Below are positions 4,767 through 60,640 of a stretch of 62,374 bases of DNA, one piece after another. The stretch is from positions 1 to 62,374 of IMG/VR virus record IMGVR_UViG_3300024249_000184; one strand, given 5' to 3'. Numbering within the stretch: position 1 is the stretch's first letter; each line of letters starts with the position of its first letter. The DNA comes from a virus. Its lineage: Duplodnaviria > Caudoviricetes. A model generated the notes under the pieces. The model had not been told where the DNA came from and did no database searches. It was given only the letters and a program-made list of their open reading frames with translations. The position numbers and the translations under genes were made by a program.

Positions 4767-5051
4767 ATGCCTAATGATTTCAAAAAACCAGAGCCGAGCA
4801 AAGCAGAAAAATTGTTTTACGAATTGGCGCTTGCCGTCCAGCGGTTAGAGCAGTCGCAGTTGACCAATACCGCCACCGTAATTGCGGCCGCCATGCTGAT
4901 GAAAATTCCACCAGAGGACATGGCTAAAATTATAATTAATCAAGGATTCATTAAAGAATATGCGGAGAAGATAAATGCGGAAATTAGGAAATTAACCGCA
5001 CCGCCGCCTATTCCCCCAACCCCAAATGCTGAACAAGGAAGCGACAAATAA
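4767..5051 (+). CDS. hypothetical protein
   Basis: Tightly packed ORF in operon. Confidence 0.65.
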   Translation: MPNDFKKPEPSKAEKLFYELALAVQRLEQSQLTNTATVIAAAMLMKIPPEDMAKIIINQGFIKEYAEKINAEIRKLTAPPPIPPTPNAEQGSDK

Positions 5052-5271
5052 AGAAATACTGGACTTCCCGCTGGGCGGTCATACCATTCGCGACATAGGC
5101 TCAATGAGCTTTATGTCTTGGATGGCGAAAAAATTGGACGGCGTGCCAAGCTACAAGGCCGCCACGCAGGAACTTTTGGGGTTATTACGCAACGCTCCTA
5201 TCGGTAAAATGACCGAGGAGGAGAAAATTAGGATAGTCAGAAAATTATTAGACCTAGATATACAAATATGA
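5026..5271 (+). CDS. hypothetical protein
   Basis: Tightly packed ORF in operon. Confidence 0.6.
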   Translation: MLNKEATNKEILDFPLGGHTIRDIGSMSFMSWMAKKLDGVPSYKAATQELLGLLRNAPIGKMTEEEKIRIVRKLLDLDIQI

Positions 5272-49912: not shown

Positions 49913-50267
49913 TCCGTTTCCGCCACGGGTTCGTTCCATGTATCTTTACGTCTTTGCCTGTTTTAACTGCGGGCGTTCAGATAAGGGACTAGAACTCCAT
50001 CATATTTTCGGCCGCGAAAGCCCTGCGGCTTTTAATGCTTGCCCCCTGTGCAGGGTTTGCCACGCGGCCGTTACCAACAGCAATGAGGAACGGGCGCGTT
50101 TTTTCTTTAAGAATGTGGAATTTTTGCTGGACAACCACTACGAATTACAGCCCGATGATTTGGCGGTGGTGGCCAAGCACCCATTTTTAATTGAGACCGA
50201 AGCCTACAAAAGAATCTTTGATACGAACGGCGATGTGGATAAGAACCTATTAAATTACCCAAAATAG
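49902..50267 (+). CDS. HNH-like zinc nuclease
   Basis: CFNCG...ELHHI.GR...N..PLC..CH. Confidence 0.7.
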   Translation: MLSNPFPPRVRSMYLYVFACFNCGRSDKGLELHHIFGRESPAAFNACPLCRVCHAAVTNSNEERARFFFKNVEFLLDNHYELQPDDLAVVAKHPFLIETEAYKRIFDTNGDVDKNLLNYPK

Positions 50268-50281
50268 GGGTATAATATAAT

Positions 50282-50620
50282 ATGGGTATAAATATCTCGC
50301 AGAACAAATACCACAATGTCCGAACGGAGTATAACGGCCGTTGGTTCGCCTCAAAATTAGAAGCCAGCCACGCCAGAGATTTGGATTTAATGCGCCGCGC
50401 GCAAGACCCAACTCAAAAAGTCGTGGCCGTGAACTATCAGTATCGGATACCCGTTAAAGTTAATGGGGTGTTGATTTGCCATTATGTCGCCGACTTTTAT
50501 GTAATGTTTGAGGACGGGCATAAGGAAATTCACGAAACCAAAGGCGTCAGGACAGCGGTATATTTAATTAAGAAAAGATTAGTTGAAGCAATTTACGGAG
50601 AAAAGATTTTAGAATTTTAA
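50282..50620 (+). CDS. DUF1064-like endonuclease/resolvase
   Basis: NKY.N....G..F.SK.EA...Y.ADF...E.KG..T.VY..K. Confidence 0.85.
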   Translation: MGINISQNKYHNVRTEYNGRWFASKLEASHARDLDLMRRAQDPTQKVVAVNYQYRIPVKVNGVLICHYVADFYVMFEDGHKEIHETKGVRTAVYLIKKRLVEAIYGEKILEF

Positions 50621-50694
50621 CGCGGGGTGGAGTAGGAGTCGCTCGGCGGTCTCATAATCCGCACACGCAGGTGCAAATCCTGCCCCCGCCACCA
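50621..50694 (+). tRNA. tRNA-Met(CAU), initiator-like
   Basis: Cloverleaf: CGCGGGG/CCCCGCC, GAGT/GCTC, GCGGT-CTCATAA-TCCGC, GCAGG-TGCAAAT-CCTGC, ACCA end. Confidence 0.85.
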
Positions 50695-50698
50695 AACT

Positions 50699-50935
50699 AT
50701 GGCCAATAAAGCACAAAAAGCAATAGTGTCCCTTGATCACCCTGTTCGGAGAGAAATCCGCAGGGGTTTAGTTAAACATGGCAAAGTTAAAGTAGTGGGC
50801 TTGGGTATTTTTGAAACCCGCAAGATTCCCGCACGTCGCGGTCGCAATCCGCAAACCAGCAAAATAGTTATGATTCCTAGCTATCTTAAAATCAAATTCC
50901 GTCCTACTAAGGCGTTAAAAGAAGCTGTCTGCTAA
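50699..50935 (+). CDS. HU/IHF-like DNA-binding protein
   Basis: V...GLG.F.....AR.GRNPQT.....I......KF.P.K.LKEAV. Confidence 0.9.
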   Translation: MANKAQKAIVSLDHPVRREIRRGLVKHGKVKVVGLGIFETRKIPARRGRNPQTSKIVMIPSYLKIKFRPTKALKEAVC

Positions 50936-52146
50936 TGCAACAAATTTCTTACCTCCCAACCGAACAACTTAAATTGCATCCGCAAAATCCTCGGCGTATT
51001 GACGAGAAGCAGATGCAAATTTTGTGCGACAGCATTAAAGCTAACCCCGATTATTTTGAAACCCGCCCTATCCTTTGTAATAAGGATATGGTGGTATTTG
51101 CAGGTAATATGCGTTTACTGGCCGCCCAGCGATTGGCATTAAAAGAAGTGCCTGTGGCCGTTATGGATATATCGGAAGAACGACAGAGAGAGCTGATGAT
51201 TAGGGACAACCGCTCTAACGGATTATGGGATTTTGATTTGCTTGGTAATAATTTTGATGTAGACAATTTACTTAAATGGGGCTTCAACGAGAAAGAATTA
51301 CTCGGAAGCCCTTTTGATTTTTTTCCAAATTCCGACAAGGATGAGAAAATGCCCGACATGCCCAATACCCCCCCCATTGCCCAATTAGGTGATGTGTATA
51401 TTTTAGGCAACCATAGATTGATGTGCGGCGATAGCACCAACCTAGATGATGTGCAAAAGTTAATGAACGGGCAAAGCGCCGACATGCTATTTACAGATCC
51501 GCCTTATAACATTGCTTATGAACAGCTTAATATGATGAGGGAAGGTGCTAAGGATTGGTCTAAAGAATCTGAATGGAAAGATAAAATGACTGATGAGCAG
51601 TTCCAGCAATTTTTGATAACTATATTAACGAATGCCAAAACGGTATTAAAAGAGTTTGCCCATTTCTATGTATGGTTTGCATTTAAATTTTATAAGGAAT
51701 TAGTGATAGCTTTTGATTCTAACGAAATTCATTACGACAAAGTTCCATTGATTTGGAAAAAGCAAACCGTGCCATTAAGCTGGGCGCGCTACCACAGAAA
51801 TTACGAACCCTGCTTATTCGGGGGCAAGGAAACTATCACGGCCAAGAACGGCGGTCGTTGGTTTGGTCCTAATAATGAAACCACGGTTTGGGAAATAAAT
51901 ACTGATAGCAATATTTCTTACGTTCATCCGACACAAAAGCCCACGGCACTTGCCGAACGTGCTATTAAAAATAGCAGTCAGGAAAATGAAATCATTTTAG
52001 ATTTATTTGGAGGCTCGGGATCCACATTAATCGCCTGTGAAAAAACTAAGCGTATTTCCTTTACAATGGAATTAGACCCTCACTACGTGGACGTGATTGT
52101 AAAAAGATGGGAAGAATATACCAAACAAACGGCGATAAAGGCATAA
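50935..52146 (+). CDS. ParB-like domain fused to N6/N4 DNA methyltransferase
   Basis: NPR...AGNMR; HRLMCGDST; TDPPYN; HPTQKP; DLFGGSGST. Confidence 0.92.
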   Translation: MQQISYLPTEQLKLHPQNPRRIDEKQMQILCDSIKANPDYFETRPILCNKDMVVFAGNMRLLAAQRLALKEVPVAVMDISEERQRELMIRDNRSNGLWDFDLLGNNFDVDNLLKWGFNEKELLGSPFDFFPNSDKDEKMPDMPNTPPIAQLGDVYILGNHRLMCGDSTNLDDVQKLMNGQSADMLFTDPPYNIAYEQLNMMREGAKDWSKESEWKDKMTDEQFQQFLITILTNAKTVLKEFAHFYVWFAFKFYKELVIAFDSNEIHYDKVPLIWKKQTVPLSWARYHRNYEPCLFGGKETITAKNGGRWFGPNNETTVWEINTDSNISYVHPTQKPTALAERAIKNSSQENEIILDLFGGSGSTLIACEKTKRISFTMELDPHYVDVIVKRWEEYTKQTAIKA

Positions 52147-52225
52147 GGAGTGGATAACTTTAAAAATTCCGCTTGAACTTACAAGAAAATCTTTGAGAAA
52201 ATCGGCATATTTTGGTCTATTTTGC

Positions 52226-52254
52226 TTGCGTAATTACCCTATATAGGCTATTAT
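52226..52254 (+). promoter_or_regulatory. palindrome promoter of the cassette/RNA unit
   Basis: TTGCGT-17 bp-TATTAT; CCCTATATAGGC 52237-52248. Confidence 0.7.
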
Positions 52255-52266
52255 ATATGTAGGGTA

Positions 52267-52551
52267 TGTTCTTTAACAACTTAAGCCGATTGGAAAGGGA
52301 AAATATGAACGTCAAAAAAACACAAATGAGTGTCCTAGAGGTTTATAGAATGGTTTTAGAACAAGCAGATTTTTGGAGGGAGCAGGCAAAAAAAAGTCCT
52401 GACGATAGATACACCACTTCAGAAAGGGGATTAAGAGAAGCGATGGCGGGAGAATTATATGCGGTTGCCGCCAATTTAGAAAGAACCCCCGAAGTTAATC
52501 CAACTAAGTAAACTAATTTATCGGCTTAAGTTGCTAGGGTGAAAATCCTAG
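52267..52551 (+). other. gene cassette wrapper 1 (boxA-like, 14-bp IR, GNRA hairpin)
   Basis: TGTTCTTTAACAA; CAACTTAAGCCGAT 52277-52290 / ATCGGCTTAAGTTG 52520-52533; CTAGGGT-GAAA-ATCCTAG. Confidence 0.8.
52305..52511 (+). CDS. hypothetical protein (cassette 1 cargo)
   Basis: GAAAGGG RBS then ATG 52305. Confidence 0.75.
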   Translation: MNVKKTQMSVLEVYRMVLEQADFWREQAKKSPDDRYTTSERGLREAMAGELYAVAANLERTPEVNPTK

Positions 52552-52553
52552 AT

Positions 52554-53017
52554 TGTTCCTTAACAACTTAATAAGCGGATTGGAAAGGGAAAAATGAATT
52601 TTATTGAAACCAATTTAAATCCAACAGGCAAAAGAGTTAACGATTGTGTGGTGCGAGCTATAATGAAAGCCACAAATTATACTTGGCGAACGGTTTATGC
52701 GGGACTAACGGGATTAGGCAATGATTTATATCGGTTGCCTAATGAGAAAGAAGTTTACCACCTTTATTTAAAACAACTCGGGTGGGAAAAACAACCGATG
52801 CCAAGACACGAAAATCGCAAACGCTATACCGTAATAGAATTTGCCGCAGAGAATCCTGTAGGCACATTCGTAATATCGGTTGCCAATCACTTAACGGTAT
52901 TGGTTGACGGCAATCTATATGATACATGGAATTGCAGTCGCAAGTGCTTAGGCAATTATTGGAAACGAAAATAAACTAATTTATCCGCTTATTAAGCTGT
53001 GAGGGTGCAAACCTTCA
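52554..53017 (+). other. gene cassette wrapper 2
   Basis: TGTTCCTTAACAA; CTTAATAAGCGGAT 52567-52580 / ATCCGCTTATTAAG 52983-52996; TGAGGGT-GCAA-ACCTTCA. Confidence 0.8.
52594..52974 (+). CDS. small putative papain-fold (Cys-His-Asp) protein (cassette 2 cargo)
   Basis: DCVVRAI...H...DG..YDTW. Confidence 0.65.
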   Translation: MNFIETNLNPTGKRVNDCVVRAIMKATNYTWRTVYAGLTGLGNDLYRLPNEKEVYHLYLKQLGWEKQPMPRHENRKRYTVIEFAAENPVGTFVISVANHLTVLVDGNLYDTWNCSRKCLGNYWKRK

Positions 53018-53340
53018 GAGGTGGCGAGTATTTGGCAAGATAGCTCGTGATTGCCTTTAACAGCGAGGTTATTGGTAATATTCGCCCCCTTTCCAAAATA
53101 AGGTTCGTTGATTTGTTGCTCTCTGGATAAGCTCGTAAAACCTAAGGCCGAAAGGCTATGGAGATAGCGAGATGCAGACAAAAATGCGAAGTAGCCGTTA
53201 AGGGGCGAAAGCATAGAGTTGCCTTAATCAACTCTTCCCGACGACAGGGAGCAGGGAATCAGCGAACCGCAAGGTGTATAATAATTTGGGAGTATGGTGT
53301 GCAAAATCGGTAGCCTTAAAACCATCCGACTTCCCACGTT
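53018..53340 (+). ncRNA. large structured RNA of unknown family
   Basis: Long-range helices with G-U pairs, GNRA loops, and the CCUAAG/UAUGG tetraloop receptor at 53141-53161; ends approximate. Confidence 0.75.
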
Positions 53341-53396
53341 CGGCCTGATGGCCAAAGCGTCTGGAAATAAAATGTGCCAGCTCTCACGTAAAATCT

Positions 53397-53534
53397 ATGA
53401 AGGAAATTTTTAAAGAATGGAGTTTGTATGTATTTGCTGTAGGCATTATTTTACTTGCTATCGGTATTGAGATTTTTAGATACAAAGTTTGCATGAGTTT
53501 TGCCCATAATCACCTATACTGCTTATTACATTAA
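53397..53534 (+). CDS. 45-aa membrane protein
   Basis: One TM segment. Confidence 0.5.
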   Translation: MKEIFKEWSLYVFAVGIILLAIGIEIFRYKVCMSFAHNHLYCLLH

Positions 53535-53612
53535 TCCTATTAAATTCAGTCCTCACAGAGTATAATTATATTGTAAGGTTAACCTTAATAATTAAGCGAA
53601 AGGAATCTTCCT

Positions 53613-53762
53613 ATGCCTATTGACTCTGCCGCGTTTAACGCGGAATTGCAGGCCTTGGCAGACAAATACCAAGTTCATATCACGGGAAAAGCGACACCTG
53701 TCAATCCCGATGAAGATGACTTTGATATTACTGCACAAGCGGTCACGCCTCCTGCGGCCTAA
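53613..53762 (+). CDS. 49-aa hypothetical protein
   Basis: GAAAGGA RBS; followed by a terminator. Confidence 0.65.
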   Translation: MPIDSAAFNAELQALADKYQVHITGKATPVNPDEDDFDITAQAVTPPAA

Positions 53763-53768
53763 AAGGTT

Positions 53769-53803
53769 GGGGCTGTTTAACAACAGCCCCTTTCTATTTT
53801 TTT
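53769..53803 (+). terminator. intrinsic terminator
   Basis: GGGGCTGTT-TAAC-AACAGCCCC-TTTCTATTTT. Confidence 0.8.
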
Positions 53804-53813
53804 AAATAAAATT

Positions 53814-54257
53814 ATGTTCTTATCTTATTCACAACGTGATCCCAAGTGGGCAGATACAAAAATGGGCAGTAGTAATTTAACTATTGGTCGCTATGGTTGC
53901 ACCACCACCAGCATTGCAGACCTGTCTACTTATTTTGGCGACAACTTAACCCCTTATCAAGTTTCCCAAACTATAAGTTATATTCAAGGCTTAGTTATCT
54001 GGACGACCTGTAAATTTACAAAGTTTCATTTTTTAAATCGTGAACGACTCCGAAGCGATATCAATATCAAAGCCGCATTAGATGACCCGAACAGAGCGGT
54101 AATTTTAAACGTGGCCAATGGTTCACATTGGGTAGTGGCAACGGGCTGGGATAATATCAATAAAGTTTTTAAAATCGCAGACCCGTGGATCGGGGACAGA
54201 AGCGATATGCGCCGATATAATAACAACATTACTGGCGCGGCTTATTTTGGGAGATAA
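53814..54257 (+). CDS. peptidase C39-like protein (candidate endolysin)
   Basis: YSQRD..W...GC..TS...HWVV...IADPW. Confidence 0.85.
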   Translation: MFLSYSQRDPKWADTKMGSSNLTIGRYGCTTTSIADLSTYFGDNLTPYQVSQTISYIQGLVIWTTCKFTKFHFLNRERLRSDINIKAALDDPNRAVILNVANGSHWVVATGWDNINKVFKIADPWIGDRSDMRRYNNNITGAAYFGR

Positions 54258-54425
54258 TATGGCACACGAACAACCAGAACGAATAAAAGAATTATTGGAA
54301 AAAGAAAAAAACGGCACGCTAAATGCCGCCGATTTTGAAGAGCTGAAAAGATATCGTGAAAATCCGCAAGGACACGGATAACATTATAATTAAGTGCTAT
54401 AAAATCGTTTAGAGGGCGGAGGGGT

Positions 54426-55109
54426 TTGAGGGAACGTAAACGACTGTCAGCATTTGAGGCAAAATGTATAAACTTTCTTAAAAAGCTCCTGCTGTTCTTG
54501 CTTATGAGCCTGTATTTAATAGGCTGGTTCGCGATAAGAACCGCGGCTGACGCTCCAACTCAACCACCTCAACAATTAGATTTTTTACCAGACATCTTAC
54601 AAAATGCATCAAGCACTATATGCACAAGTGGGGGAAATGACCAGCCTGCGACTGGATGCGCAAGTCCCGTTCATTTGGAAGTTCCTAAACATGCCACCAC
54701 GACAGCTAAAAGGCTACCGACTGGACATTCTACCCGTTCCGAAAAAACGGTATCAGCCGACTCTTTACAGCAATACCTCCAAAGGAATAATAGCCCTCTT
54801 GCGGACTATGCGCCGCAAATCGCTAGTTCGTCATATTCCAGTCTCATCATCGGGATCTGTGCGATTGAACAATATAATTGCACCCGCGCGCCGAACTACA
54901 ACTATTGGGGACTTATGGGCAAAACTGGATTACAGAAGTTCTCAAATATGGGACAAGGTATTCAAGCGATAGATAGTTTTTTAACCAAGGCCGAGAATAA
55001 TGGGCGAACAACCGTAGAATCTTTCCGCGGTTGGTATTGCCAATCGGCCTGCACAAATTGGGAAAGCACCGTATTGAAAGTAAAAGCTCAGGTTGAAGCA
55101 CTACCATAG
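54426..55109 (+). CDS. membrane-anchored glucosaminidase/lysozyme-like protein
   Basis: N-terminal TM; L..YL...NSPLA.YA...AIE...NYWG...Y....NW. Confidence 0.6.
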   Translation: MRERKRLSAFEAKCINFLKKLLLFLLMSLYLIGWFAIRTAADAPTQPPQQLDFLPDILQNASSTICTSGGNDQPATGCASPVHLEVPKHATTTAKRLPTGHSTRSEKTVSADSLQQYLQRNNSPLADYAPQIASSSYSSLIIGICAIEQYNCTRAPNYNYWGLMGKTGLQKFSNMGQGIQAIDSFLTKAENNGRTTVESFRGWYCQSACTNWESTVLKVKAQVEALP

Positions 55110-55164
55110 CGGCGTGGCCGCCTAACTTTATAAAACCAAAACAAACAGGGTATCTCCCAGCAAC

Positions 55165-55218
55165 AACAGGCTTTAATGGTAGCCTGTTTTTGCTTTACTC
55201 CCTATTTAGGGTTATAAT
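55165..55218 (+). promoter_or_regulatory. terminator overlapping a palindrome promoter
   Basis: AACAGGCT...AGCCTGTTTT; TTGCTT-17 bp-TATAAT; CCCTATTTAGGG 55200-55211. Confidence 0.7.
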
Positions 55219-55224
55219 ATGCCT

Positions 55225-55692
55225 ATGATTCCCGAAATAGAAAAAGAATTTTTGTTAGAAAGCAACGCCATTGAGGGCGTATTTGACCATACCAGCTTTT
55301 TACAAGCCCGCTATGCGTGGGAGTATTTAAAAAGTCAAAAGGAAATGTCCTCGCATGTTGTTTTAAAGACGCATAAAATTTTAATGCTCAAGCAACCTTT
55401 ACAGCCTGATGAAAAAGGCTATTTTAGAAAAGTGCCTGTATATATCGGCGGCCACCAAGCATTAAACCATAGCGCGGTAAAAGAGCGTATGCATATTTGG
55501 TGTCTCAATGCTTTTATCCACCCGCAATATTGGAAAGAGCATCACGTTGAATATGAAAAAATCCACCCGTTTGTTGACGGCAACGGCCGCACGGGTAGAA
55601 TGTTTATGAATTGGGAACGCTTAAAAGCTGGTCTCCCAATTTTGGTAATTAAGGCTGACGAACGCCACGAATATTATAAATGGTTTGCATAA
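55225..55692 (+). CDS. Fic-domain protein
   Basis: Canonical HPFVDGNGRTGR; N-terminal SNAIEG inhibitory-type motif. Confidence 0.93.
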   Translation: MIPEIEKEFLLESNAIEGVFDHTSFLQARYAWEYLKSQKEMSSHVVLKTHKILMLKQPLQPDEKGYFRKVPVYIGGHQALNHSAVKERMHIWCLNAFIHPQYWKEHHVEYEKIHPFVDGNGRTGRMFMNWERLKAGLPILVIKADERHEYYKWFA

Positions 55693-56245
55693 TATGGATC
55701 AATTAGCAACAACCGAAATAGAACCCGCTTACGAACCCGATTACGAGATAACGGATATAGTTTTTTCCGAGCCTTTTGTTTTGCTAAAACCGTTATCGGA
55801 AGGTCGTCCGCACTGGTGGAGCGATAGAGGAAAAGTCCTGCAACTTATTGACGCATTCAAAATGGACTTAACTATATCAGAAGCCTGTGTTAAAGCGGGA
55901 ATTTCCGTAGACCAATATAAATATTTTTGTAAGATACATCCTTACTTTTCTACCGTAAAAGCTAGGTGTAAAAGTTTCGCTCCGATACTCGCTAAAGAGG
56001 GGCTTATAAGCGATTTGAAATCGCCTGATGGCGCGCGTTCCCGCCAATGGTATTTGGAACGCAGACAGCCGCATTTATATGGCCGTGATATAGGAGCATA
56101 CACTCCGCCGCCGCCTGAAGCCGCCACTAAGGTAACGGCCGAGGCTTTCCTTGATAATGAGGGCAAGTTATTAGTTTCACGTCAAACAGCCGAAGTATTA
56201 AAACAAGAATATGGAGACGAGGACGATAGAGATAAAACAGAGTAA
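55685..56245 (+). CDS. terminase small subunit (putative)
   Basis: HTH (I.EAC..AGIS...Y), W.LERR....YG; directly before TerL. Confidence 0.7.
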   Translation: MHNMDQLATTEIEPAYEPDYEITDIVFSEPFVLLKPLSEGRPHWWSDRGKVLQLIDAFKMDLTISEACVKAGISVDQYKYFCKIHPYFSTVKARCKSFAPILAKEGLISDLKSPDGARSRQWYLERRQPHLYGRDIGAYTPPPPEAATKVTAEAFLDNEGKLLVSRQTAEVLKQEYGDEDDRDKTE

Positions 56246-58007
56246 ACTCGCCAATGTTTACGATATCTATAACCGCCACTTCCGCCTATTCGTGCGGGAT
56301 ATTTTAGGTTTGATTAATGAACCGTTCCACGATGAACTGGACGATGAAATAAGCCAGAAGTTTGATGCCGAAAGCCCCACCTATAAAATGGTTAAGCGGT
56401 TTTTTGCCGTATTTACCTACCCGCGCGACCACGGCAAGAGCAAACATCTATCGGTAGCCTACCCGCTTTGGCGTATGGCAAAAGACCATAATGTTAGGAT
56501 ATTGTCAATCTCAAGGACTGGTGCGGTTGCCGAGTCCTTTTTATCTGAAATCGTTTCAAACATTGAACGTAACGAGCTTTATAAAGAATGGGCGGAAAAT
56601 ATAGACCCTATGCGTGAAGGCGTGGTGCCGCGCATGAAACCAACCCGCAAGCAGACTGAAGATTGGAGTGGAAAGTCCATTACTATTGAGCGCGAGGACA
56701 TCGGCTCGAAAGACCCGACAATTTGGGCAACAGGTTTGTTTGGCCAAATATTAGCCCGCCGTGCGGACGTAATTATTCTTGACGACGTGGTTGACCAGCA
56801 AAATAGTATGACCGAGCTTCAGCGCAAAAAGGTTATTGACTGGATAGAGACAACCGTTTTGCCTGTATTAGTGCCAGGCGGCACGCTTATATATCTTGGC
56901 AATACGTGGCACCAAGACGACGTTGTTTCTAAGTTTATGACTGACCCGCGCTTTGTGGTGCAGAAACGGCAGGGTGCGATAATCCACGAGGCCGACCGCC
57001 AAGACCTTTGGCAGAAGTGGGGGAGTATTATGTTAAACATTACCGTGCCGCCAAAGGAAAGGTTTAAGGCCGCGGACGAATACTACCAGCAGAACCAAGC
57101 CGACATGGACGCTGGCTCACAAGTGCTTTGGAAAGAGCGCTATCCCTATTCGCGTTTGTATTTGGAGCGATTACTCAACCCTTACGTCTTTGCGCGCATG
57201 TATCAGTGCGACCCGAGCAATAGGCCTGACCAAGTTATCAAGGACGAATGGATTGAGGCGGCTATGAAAAAGGGTAAACATTTACGCTTTCAGGACACGC
57301 CGCACGAAAAAAACTTTTTGGAAGTATCGGCGGCTGGTATGGACTTGGCTATCAGCCTTGAAGAGGCGGCAGATGATACCGCACTTATTTATCTTGACCT
57401 TGTTAGGCAGGGCTATGACGGCGTAGAGGACGGGGATTATATTATCCGCCAAATCCACCGCGGGAAGTTTACGCCTAATGAACAAAGGACTAAAGCCAAG
57501 ATAGCTTGGATGAGCCACGGCATGGCCACCGTCCGCGTGGAATCCGTGGGCTATCAGGCCTCATTAACCATTGACCTTAAAAATGAGGGCGTGCCAGTTA
57601 CGGCTTACCATACGGGCGGGGAGAAGTTTGACCCTGAAATCGGTATCAACAGCTTGGCCGTGGCTATGGAATTGGGGCAGGTAGTAATCCCCAGTGACCC
57701 GACAGACCCGCGGACAATCATGTTGGCCAGCCAGTTGGCTAACGAAATGCGGGCGTTTCCTGACGGCCACACGGGAGACGCGCTAATGGCGCTATGGTTT
57801 GCATATTCCGAAATTCGTGCTTTAATGGGATCAAGGGTTGGTTTCCCCAAAGGCGGCTTAAGCTTTATCAAAGACTCCCCGCCTGTGCAAACCAAAGAGC
57901 AAAGAGTAGACTTAGAGAAAGTGGCCGACATTGAGGCTATTAAGATACAAGAGAAAGAGCGAAGCGGCTTTGACCGCATGGTGGGCGTATTCGGAGAAAA
58001 AAAATAG
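56211..58007 (+). CDS. terL: terminase large subunit
   Basis: PRDHGKS Walker A, IILDD Walker B, GNTWHQDD, MYQC.P, GMDLAIS nuclease, FP.G..GD..MA. Confidence 0.95.
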   Translation: METRTIEIKQSKLANVYDIYNRHFRLFVRDILGLINEPFHDELDDEISQKFDAESPTYKMVKRFFAVFTYPRDHGKSKHLSVAYPLWRMAKDHNVRILSISRTGAVAESFLSEIVSNIERNELYKEWAENIDPMREGVVPRMKPTRKQTEDWSGKSITIEREDIGSKDPTIWATGLFGQILARRADVIILDDVVDQQNSMTELQRKKVIDWIETTVLPVLVPGGTLIYLGNTWHQDDVVSKFMTDPRFVVQKRQGAIIHEADRQDLWQKWGSIMLNITVPPKERFKAADEYYQQNQADMDAGSQVLWKERYPYSRLYLERLLNPYVFARMYQCDPSNRPDQVIKDEWIEAAMKKGKHLRFQDTPHEKNFLEVSAAGMDLAISLEEAADDTALIYLDLVRQGYDGVEDGDYIIRQIHRGKFTPNEQRTKAKIAWMSHGMATVRVESVGYQASLTIDLKNEGVPVTAYHTGGEKFDPEIGINSLAVAMELGQVVIPSDPTDPRTIMLASQLANEMRAFPDGHTGDALMALWFAYSEIRALMGSRVGFPKGGLSFIKDSPPVQTKEQRVDLEKVADIEAIKIQEKERSGFDRMVGVFGEKK

Positions 58008-60105: not shown

Positions 60106-60229
60106 ACGATCCAAAGGGTTTAAAAAAATTAAGGAATAATTGGCCAGCCTGCGGGCGTATACCAAAGCACAAATGCAAAAACTGCAAATGCGTCAGGTAT
60201 AATCCTTGCGGTTGCCAAAAGAAATAACT

Positions 60230-60640
60230 ATGAAAACTATTGGCATGACTGGCAAGCACCATACCGAAGAAACTAAGAAAAAAATTAGTTTGAAAAATAG
60301 TGGAAAGGGCAATGGAAGGTATGGGGTTGCTTGGTCAAATAGTCAAAGAAAAGGAATATCCTACAGAACTCGTGATGAGAAGAATCCAGCATGGAAAGGC
60401 GGCACTGATAAATGGTTTAAGAAGCGTGTGCTTAAAAGGGATAACCATACTTGCCAAATATGCGGATTAAAAGATGATGAGATTATGGTTATGGATCATA
60501 TAAAACCAAAATCTATTTACCCTGAATTACGACACGAGATTACTAATTTACAAACGCTTTGCCCTAATTGTCATGCCAGAAAAACAAATGCCGAAAAAAA
60601 GGAAATTATTAGAATTAAAAAAGCTAGAATAATTATATGA
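60230..60640 (+). CDS. NUMOD3-HNH endonuclease
   Basis: GKHHTEETKKKIS; CQICG...DHIKP...NLQTLCPNCH. Confidence 0.9.
   Translation: MKTIGMTGKHHTEETKKKISLKNSGKGNGRYGVAWSNSQRKGISYRTRDEKNPAWKGGTDKWFKKRVLKRDNHTCQICGLKDDEIMVMDHIKPKSIYPELRHEITNLQTLCPNCHARKTNAEKKEIIRIKKARIII

Follow-up and report, generated by a model that had tools for sequence, protein, structure and literature searches.

Why should two unrelated small genes of a phage stand between flanks that are shared in sequence and complementary to each other across each gene? This question is raised by positions 52226-53017 of IMG/VR record IMGVR_UViG_3300024249_000184. The window analysed here is that entire record, 62,374 nt from soil, estimated to be 96% complete. 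The locus holds two open reading frames (ORFs) in tandem, ORF1 and ORF2, and the initial annotation had read them as gene cassettes wrapped like ribosomal RNA (rRNA) genes, with a boxA, an enclosing stem and a small hairpin. The reading to which we give about even chances is that the flanks form a portable, cis-acting RNA wrapper, in which a flank helix closes each small ORF into its own loop.

Predicted flank helices around ORF1 and ORF2

We re-read the sequence and located every element of the initial annotation at its place. Three motifs flank both genes, and each occurs exactly twice in the 62,374-nt record: TGTTCYTTAACAA (at 52267 and 52554), GATTGGAAAGGGAAAA (at 52288 and 52578) and TAAACTAATTTAT (at 52509 and 52972). 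The parts of the two cassettes are as follows.

52226-52254, + strand: putative promoter, TTGCGT-N17-TATTAT
52235-52266: palindrome TACCCTATATA / TATGTAGGGTA, 11 nt, spanning the putative -10 region and ending at boxA 1
52267-52279, + strand: boxA-like 13-mer, copy 1, TGTTCTTTAACAA
52277-52290, + strand: 5' arm of cassette 1, forming a perfect 14-bp duplex with 52520-52533
52288-52303, + strand: shared ribosome-binding context GATTGGAAAGGGAAAA, copy 1; cassette 2 and the third cassette (L040, see below) have the same sequence
52305-52511, + strand: cargo ORF1, 68 aa, orphan
52509-52521, + strand: shared stop context TAAACTAATTTAT, copy 1; L040 differs, with TAA + ATAAATCTTT
52520-52533, + strand: 3' arm of cassette 1
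52534-52551, + strand: hairpin 1, 7 bp, GAAA loop, abutting the 3' arm; pair probability 0.97-0.99
52554-52566, + strand: boxA-like 13-mer, copy 2, TGTTCCTTAACAA, 2 nt 3' of hairpin 1
52567-52580, + strand: 5' arm of cassette 2, forming a perfect 14-bp duplex with 52983-52996
52578-52593, + strand: shared ribosome-binding context, copy 2
52594-52974, + strand: cargo ORF2, 126 aa, phrog_3754
52972-52984, + strand: shared stop context, copy 2
52983-52996, + strand: 3' arm of cassette 2
53000-53017, + strand: hairpin 2, 7 bp, GCAA loop, without a U-tract; pair probability about 0.6, rivalling the helix extension

We searched the whole genome for inverted repeats (seed of at least 11, spacing of at most 2 kb) and extended their arms. 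The two gene-enclosing repeats were the longest two of 14 pairs, with 34 nt at 74% and 28 nt at 82%. For 66 ORFs, the 50 nt upstream were then paired with the 50 nt downstream. This flank-to-flank duplex reached -33.5 kcal/mol in each cassette, versus -12.4 kcal/mol (standard deviation 4.1) for the other 64 genes, the next best of which gave -24.9 kcal/mol. The 14-bp duplex that had been claimed around each gene is perfect, and the cognate arms (-32.1 and -30.2 kcal/mol) paired far more strongly than the crossed arms (-13.0 and -17.9 kcal/mol). A local alternative, the 3' arm of cassette 1 with the 5' arm of cassette 2, gave only -11.6 kcal/mol. The ribosome-binding site is located 13-17 nt inward on one strand of each helix, and the stop codon 8-10 nt inward on the opposite strand.

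Folding of 766 nt placed both enclosing helices and both hairpins in the minimum free energy (MFE) structure as well as in the centroid (z = -3.4). The pair probabilities of the enclosing helices were 0.88-1.0 in transcripts ending at 52560, 53020 and 53280, and the arms of cassette 2 kept 0.9-1.0 at every transcript length tried.

A third cassette with different cargo

Re-screening of the loci fetched with the 16-nt motif recovered a third cassette, on a 15,925-nt phage fragment of 37% GC (contig L040, genome G156). It begins with the following promoter.

4612-4640 of L040: sigma-70 promoter, 11/12, ending 15 nt before the boxA-like motif

Behind it come the boxA-like TGTACCTTAACAA, a 5' arm, an identical GATTGGAAAGGGAAAA, an ORF of 50 aa, TAA, a 10-nt spacer, a 3' arm and a hairpin (5 bp, 6-nt loop). 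The 5' flank is the same as that of the window at 41 of 43 nt and carries the arm allele of cassette 2 (allele 2); the hairpin is similar too. The 50-aa ORF is unrelated to ORF1 and ORF2. The two phages gave no tblastx match at E<1e-4, and their terminases are of different types and unrelated. In blastn, the window and L040 matched at three places, the 5' flank (95% over 43 nt), the 3' flank (79% over 67 nt) and a 21-nt block (100%), and nowhere else. The wrapper is thus found with three unrelated cargos in two unrelated phages, and since the same wrapper holds different cargo in a phage without detectably related proteins, the wrapper is portable and the cargo variable. This bears out the proposal that the shared flanks allow cargo exchange. 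L040 also shows what had been asked of relatives beforehand, different cargo within retained flanks. Arm allele 1 (cassette 1) and allele 2 are distinguished by a single C-G to G-C swap and by 3 bp inserted in matching fashion on both strands, and an A.C mismatch of cassette 2 is U.G in L040.

The extension of the helices into the boxA-like motif, another point of the initial annotation, was found in all three cassettes, where the boxA-like tract pairs with the AGGGU that opens the 3' hairpin. From cores of 14-17 bp, the extended helices reach 24, 25 and 24 pairs with 1-3 interruptions (-29.7, -30.9 and -31.4 kcal/mol for cassette 1, cassette 2 and L040, respectively). In L040 the extended helix of 24 bp is the MFE structure (z = -5.6). 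A switch between extension and hairpin had been suggested as well; it is energetically plausible, and is predicted for cassette 2 (extension at 0.3-0.6 versus hairpin 2 at 0.6) and for L040, but not for cassette 1, in which the hairpin prevails.

Each helix contains 2-3 G-U pairs, and in 3/3 cassettes the sense strand is more stable than the antisense strand by 1.7-3.6 kcal/mol; counting the whole module, this bias is found in 6 of 7 helices. Given this bias, a function of the transcribed strand as RNA is more likely than a function as DNA. According to these models, the pairing is cassette-specific, kept across two arm alleles, sense-biased, placed around variable ORFs and promoter-proximal.

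The inverted arms could instead be DNA repeats recognized by a recombinase or transposase, bounding invertible segments or passenger elements with terminal inverted repeats. They do flank whole genes, and the same repeats hold different passengers in unrelated phages. Neither flanking direct repeats nor, in the 29 window and 8 L040 ORFs scanned, a recombinase, integrase or transposase was seen, and the helix extensions use G-U pairs, which are mismatched in DNA. Moreover, the two phages remain homologous past the arms in either direction, in the boxA-like tract, in the hairpin and in the 21-nt block, indicating that the arms are not the ends of an element. Assembled contigs of one DNA run, possibly from the source sample, included one identical contig with no joints and no inverted or deleted form, which is weak evidence since contigs lose rare variants. 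We consider DNA repeats of this kind very improbable. An inverton was rejected on the same three grounds (homology beyond the arms, no recombinase in the ORFs scanned and, weakly, no variant form in the contigs). An integron cassette with attC was rejected too: the two complementary halves are separated by the ORF, local pairing gives -11.6 kcal/mol, and no integrase was present in the ORFs scanned.

A milder explanation at the DNA level is that these are shuffling cassettes like the T4-type PeSLs, with the repeats acting chiefly as recombination homology and their inverted character secondary; this would be compatible with the RNA reading. PeSLs are described as promoter and stem-loop cassettes that mediate modular shuffling (PMC2839356); in both systems variable ORFans stand between short conserved non-coding cassettes, which plausibly promote their shuffling (PMC2839356, PMC4122927). 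Three cargos in one wrapper, in two phages otherwise sharing nothing, fit this explanation. So do the L040 wrapper, a mosaic of cassette-2 arms and a cassette-1 type hairpin, the scatter of the ORF2 family across phages of many hosts, and the wrapper motifs being present in 0 of 14 terminase relatives of G156. Hairpin 1 with the T-rich TTGTTCCTT (the start of boxA 2) was also scored terminator-like by the consensus scan. However, recombination needs direct repeats, and it leaves the complementarity of the flanks, the cassette-specific arms and the compensated changes unexplained. A PeSL, as far as the same sources describe it, lies between genes and consists of a strong sigma-70 promoter with a terminator stem-loop; here the pairing is between the two flanks of a single gene, no promoter-like site precedes cassette 2 (none in 52512-52593 by the consensus scan; in each array a promoter precedes the first unit only), two of the three hairpins (hairpin 2 and that of L040) lack a U-tract, and the G-U pairs favour the sense strand. 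Shuffling as the main purpose of the flanks appears unlikely to us.

The 5' flank is also open in one frame in all three cassettes: MFFNNLSRLEREN (52266-52304), LFLNNLISGLEREK* (52553-52597) and MYLNNLISGLEREKH (L040 4655-4699). It might encode a leader peptide of 14 codons (M/L-F/Y-F/L-NNL..LERE..), which in cassette 1 and L040 would be translated in frame with the cargo. The frame runs from ATG 52266, from TTG 52553 to a TGA overlapping ATG 52594, and from TTG 4655 in L040, and the indel between the arm alleles is 3 nt. Such a peptide leaves the complementary 3' flank unexplained; the starts, two of which are TTG, have no ribosome-binding context, and the sequences are too similar to tell coding from RNA constraint. 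We regard this explanation as highly improbable.

The RNA wrapper is rare: three contigs carried the module among the matches listed in the collections searched. The only relative found with the window terminase was G001 (61,925 nt), which is 99.15% identical over 49924-55685 and 75-86% elsewhere, including the terminase; this mosaic identity points to recent exchange of a 5.8-kb block holding the cassettes. Because G001 is unchanged over 52003-53872, it is uninformative on covariation. No wrapper was found near relatives of the methylase gene next to the cassettes (4 loci) or of ORF2 (6 loci). Scans with the exact motifs and with a gapped boxA...TGGAAAGGG pattern gave, beyond G001 and L040, only coding sequences or rrn spacers among the matches listed; the gapped pattern demanded a canonical boxA, so that L040-like variants in the metagenome and genome collections would escape it. 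When the region and the L040 leader were compared by blastn with 50,697 phage records, there was no match, or only a 35-nt chance match.

The cargo differs in kind from gene to gene. ORF1 had no Pfam, PHROG or NCBIfam family and no tblastn match in the 50,697 phage records, and its sole match among 5.8 billion proteins was itself. ORF2 belongs to phrog_3754 (E 2.6e-25), with tblastn matches of 33-42% identity in 174 phage records (Pseudomonas, Bacillus, Prevotella and other hosts), some annotated 'putative peptidase'. In six other phages the ORF2 homologues are not stem-enclosed (-9.4 to -19.3 kcal/mol), indicating that enclosure belongs to the wrapper and not to the gene. An ORF fills all three loops from end to end, and the cargo sequences are hydrophilic. 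As a separate observation, the ORF2 homologue of an AT-rich phage (L282, 40% identity) has an extended -10 promoter and a boxA-like TGTTCTTTGAAAA (2962-2974), 28 nt before its ATG, without an enclosing stem; 0 of 5 other ORF2 homologues have a boxA-like motif.

The resemblance between the two phages continues 3' of the cassettes, where about 380 nt of RNA (53018-53396) contain no ORF. The first 250 nt fold into two elements.

53018-53101, + strand: hairpin H3; L040 counterpart at 4896-4978, with a conserved base and an unrelated top
53102-53271, + strand: ORF-free structured RNA with GNRA loops, closed by a 23-bp stem, P1; L040 counterpart at about 5013-5216

The basal stem of H3 has 11 pairs, of which 1 is compensatory and 1 changed on one side. 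Its 3' side is the 21-nt block (53081-53101), identical in L040 at 21 of 21 positions. Within this block, CCCTTTCCAA (53087-53096) is a perfect 10-nt complement of TTGGAAAGGG in every pre-ATG motif, and it has no other + strand copy in the genome. P1 gave -40.1 kcal/mol on the sense strand versus -25.3 kcal/mol on the antisense strand. In L040 it has 22 bp; the outer bases are common to both phages and the inner pairs are entirely different. MAFFT/RNAalifold aligned the P1 strands of this RNA wrongly, and only the base of H3 was usable. At gathering thresholds Rfam reported only a tRNA; the other matches, at E<=10, were sub-threshold, and no family was assigned to the module. The P1-closed RNA may be a third, non-coding 'cargo', and the operon reads as a run of stem-closed units, one or two coding and then one non-coding. 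The top of H3 also contains ATTGCCTTTAACAGC (53040-53065), which resembles a decayed third boxA-like tract and is one base short of the consensus.

The boxA-like tract and a model of wrapper function

The initial annotation had identified the tract before each gene as an rrn boxA bound by NusB/NusE. We compared the three copies with the consensus GYTCTTTAANA (PMC5725501), which may differ from that of the host. Copy 1 matched at 11/11 positions, copy 2 at 10/11 and L040 at 9/11, so that one of the three copies fits the consensus in full. Copy 1 is the only match in the genome (0.44 expected); because at least one match was also present in 39 of 100 shuffled genomes, its weight comes from its position and not from its existence. 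The exact 13-mer TGTTCTTTAACAA is a real boxA of the 16S-23S spacer in several Burkholderiales, between tRNA-Ala and 23S; a gapped genome scan met it by chance in Ottowia (G002), in a tandem pair of operons in G044 and in two Candidimonas scaffolds. With a small hairpin 4-5 nt before boxA, the spacers of G002 and G044 show the same order as hairpin 1 and boxA 2. The 13-mer was present in 17 of 151 Pseudomonadota genomes, overall no commoner than a reversed control, and is informative only inside rrn operons; the sites of the C-variant TGTTCCTTAACAA in G078 and G070 lie outside them.

The most degenerate copy is that of L040, the sole one in its operon and behind the best promoter; the motif lies just downstream of a predicted promoter that scores 11/12 in L040 and is weak in the window. 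The putative promoter claimed ahead of cassette 1 is a TTGCGT-17-TATTAT pair; it is weak, and the consensus scan did not flag it. The changes in copy 2 and L040 keep or improve pairing with the 3' AGGGU, suggesting that the motif may be conserved as a helix strand and not as a NusB/E site. Judged from the sequence, copy 1 is likely to be a real NusB/E site, and it is doubtful that copy 2 and the L040 copy are.

These data also bear on whether a boxA site could be the main role of the locus. As a Nus-factor boxA of the suhB/rrn type, 25-31 nt before the start codon, it would repress translation of the cargo, or would make polymerase resistant to termination through the downstream RNA and the late genes, and the stems would be accessory. 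The perfect, unique match of copy 1, its identity with spacer boxA of real rrn operons, the hairpin 2 nt ahead of boxA 2 and the long ORF-free RNA behind the cassettes all agree with this, as does the repression of suhB and other genes by a boxA less than 50 nt from the start codon (PMC5725501). Copies 2 and 3 are nevertheless off consensus, the lone copy of L040 being the worst; their changes serve pairing with AGGGU, a consensus match is not rare genome-wide, and the C-variant occurs outside rrn operons. That this is the main role of the locus is, in our view, quite unlikely. In an unrelated case, the minus strand of a 1,212-nt metagenome contig (L290) has T(G/T)TTCTTTAA(C/T)AA 10-40 nt before each of three consecutive small genes.

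For the RNA wrapper we propose the following model. On the sense transcript, the 5' flank (boxA-like tract and arm) would pair with the 3' flank (arm and 5' half of the hairpin), and the core helix of 14-17 bp, extendable to 24-25 bp, would close the ORF loop. The helix may then be a substrate of the leader-trailer type, to be cut by a double-strand RNase, for example RNase III. Closure of the 5' end onto the 3' end may instead, or as well, protect both ends and gate translation. The boxA-like tract upstream and CCCUUUCCAA downstream could be alternative partners for the shared ribosome-binding motif. NusB/NusE, if recruited by the boxA-like tract, would tether the 5' arm to the polymerase until its 3' partner emerges, probably at copy 1 only. 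BoxA-tethered looping with RNase III acting on the leader-trailer helix has been proposed for 16S rRNA (PMC4807359, PMC10250234, bioRxiv 10.64898/2026.03.17.712431), and 30S formation is stated to require this helix (PMC10250234). The flanks, conserved over about 40-70 nt, may provide the homology for cargo swaps by double crossover between co-infecting phages. Taken to its full extent, the model describes a horizontally mobile RNA expression socket used by unrelated phages, which joins a boxA and leader-trailer helix of rrn origin to a constant ribosome-binding site and its anti-site downstream, and in which host Nus factors hold the 5' arm so that the helix can close on a translated ORF, small accessory genes are expressed, cut out and regulated singly, and the flanks are crossover points; we think this full version improbable.

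The evidence is strongest for a portable wrapper, exchangeable cargo and an enclosing helix at the RNA level, and weaker for a Nus boxA. Circularisation, suggested in the initial annotation, found no support. Several results weigh against the proposed wrapper. In a 1,535-nt transcript model reaching to the terminator, the probability of the cassette-1 helix collapsed to 0.06 as local pairs won, although the MFE structure kept the helix; thermodynamic support for cassette 1 therefore varies with transcript length. With three distinct cassettes covariation is thin, and the compensatory changes are too few for statistics. The covariation claimed for the hairpins is not significant: across the three hairpins 19/19 cells pair and 2 of 7 pairs have changed on both sides, but 61 of 500 shuffles equalled this. 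The boxA-like motif departs from the consensus at position 5 in copy 2 (C) and at positions 3 and 5 in L040 (A and C, respectively). Pairing of the ribosome-binding motif with CCCTTTCCAA is not predicted by ensemble folds (probability about 0.01 in cassette 2), so that a role of CCCTTTCCAA rests solely on its conservation. Finally, a scan of 29 window ORFs outside 1-40 kb (Pfam) and of 8 L040 ORFs detected no phage-encoded RNase III or Nus-like protein, which counts here, and no antiterminator or recombinase.

We compared the wrapper with known systems. In rrn operons the order is as here, (hairpin)-boxA-5' strand-cargo-3' strand, in tandem behind one promoter and with a different helix per unit. 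Complementary sequences of the leader-trailer type flank the cargo in 3/3 cassettes and, in their extended form, reach about 20 bp or more. The rrn cargo is structural RNA, whereas here it is a translated ORF with its own ribosome-binding site, ORF2 being a member of a protein family; the P1-closed 53102-53271 does fit a structural RNA. In addition, the rrn boxA lies about 200 nt upstream of the helix, whereas here boxA abuts or joins it and 2 of 3 copies are off-consensus. The suhB-type boxA likewise lies within 50 nt upstream of a protein-coding start; these cases, as described, have no gene-enclosing helix and no shared wrapper and act via translational repression and Rho termination (Baniulyte et al., 2017, PMC5725501).

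The hok mRNA, with its tac/fbi elements, resembles the cassettes in that a long-range 5'-3' stem closes a small-ORF mRNA and complements of the ribosome-binding site lie upstream and downstream (PMC9841398). The complements here measure 6 nt (boxA-like tract) and 10 nt (53087-53096), and ensemble folds do not favour the pairing. The cargo of hok, according to the same text, is a membrane toxin, whereas that of the wrappers, which are tandem and interchangeable, is hydrophilic or a 126-aa enzyme-like protein. The consensus scan showed no antisense promoter directed into a cassette, and no antisense RNA was identified.

In the early mRNA of phage T7, RNase III sites are local hairpins between genes and release discrete mRNAs. 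Promoter-proximal small genes are separated there by double-stranded RNA, as they may be here, but the T7 hairpins are local and not gene-spanning. The parts of the wrapper are known, and their combination was absent from the open-access text searched (supplements excluded), in which no phage ORF in a leader-trailer helix was reported.

If the helices form and are processed, protein genes would be handled by a logic considered specific to rRNA, that of a boxA followed by a leader-trailer helix, and the Nus 'RNA looping' model could be tested on a small, non-essential and easily mutated substrate. The wrapper would also be a compact natural insulator (about 45 nt + about 45 nt) that accepts arbitrary ORFs, useful for operon design. 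For phage evolution, it would offer a route for accessory-gene exchange between phages otherwise without shared sequence.

Locus and genome context

The cassettes lie between the following features.

50935-52146: ParB-N6/N4 DNA methylase, 5' neighbour of the cassettes
53769-53790, + strand: strong intrinsic-terminator-like site, the first one 3' of the cassettes; 9 bp, 6 GC, T-tract (consensus scan)
56211-58007: large terminase, preceded in the list of 3' neighbours by a C39-like peptidase and a Fic protein

The 52235-52266 palindrome, judged by its sequence and position, could be an operator, or a boxB-like hairpin in read-through RNA. An opposite-strand promoter-like site (10/12, TTGTTA-18-TATAAT, 52250-52279) overlaps boxA 1 and is directed away from the cassette.

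The window phage has a GC content of about 44%, and its large ORFs are all on the + strand. Its terminase protein matches are 22-38% identical and come from phages of many hosts, from which the host could not be inferred. Most genes lack a Shine-Dalgarno sequence. TAGCCTTATAAT is repeated in the genome (at 11879, 18795, 36624 and 14 more sites), with 17 matches at <=2 mismatches versus 7 expected, and in three cases it ends exactly 6 nt 5' of an ATG; this pattern suggests that the copies may be phage promoters yielding leaderless mRNAs. A tRNA gene lies at 50621-50691, between the DUF1064 and HU-like genes, and a free-standing HNH endonuclease with a NUMOD3 motif is encoded at 60206-60640, amid glycosyltransferase genes.

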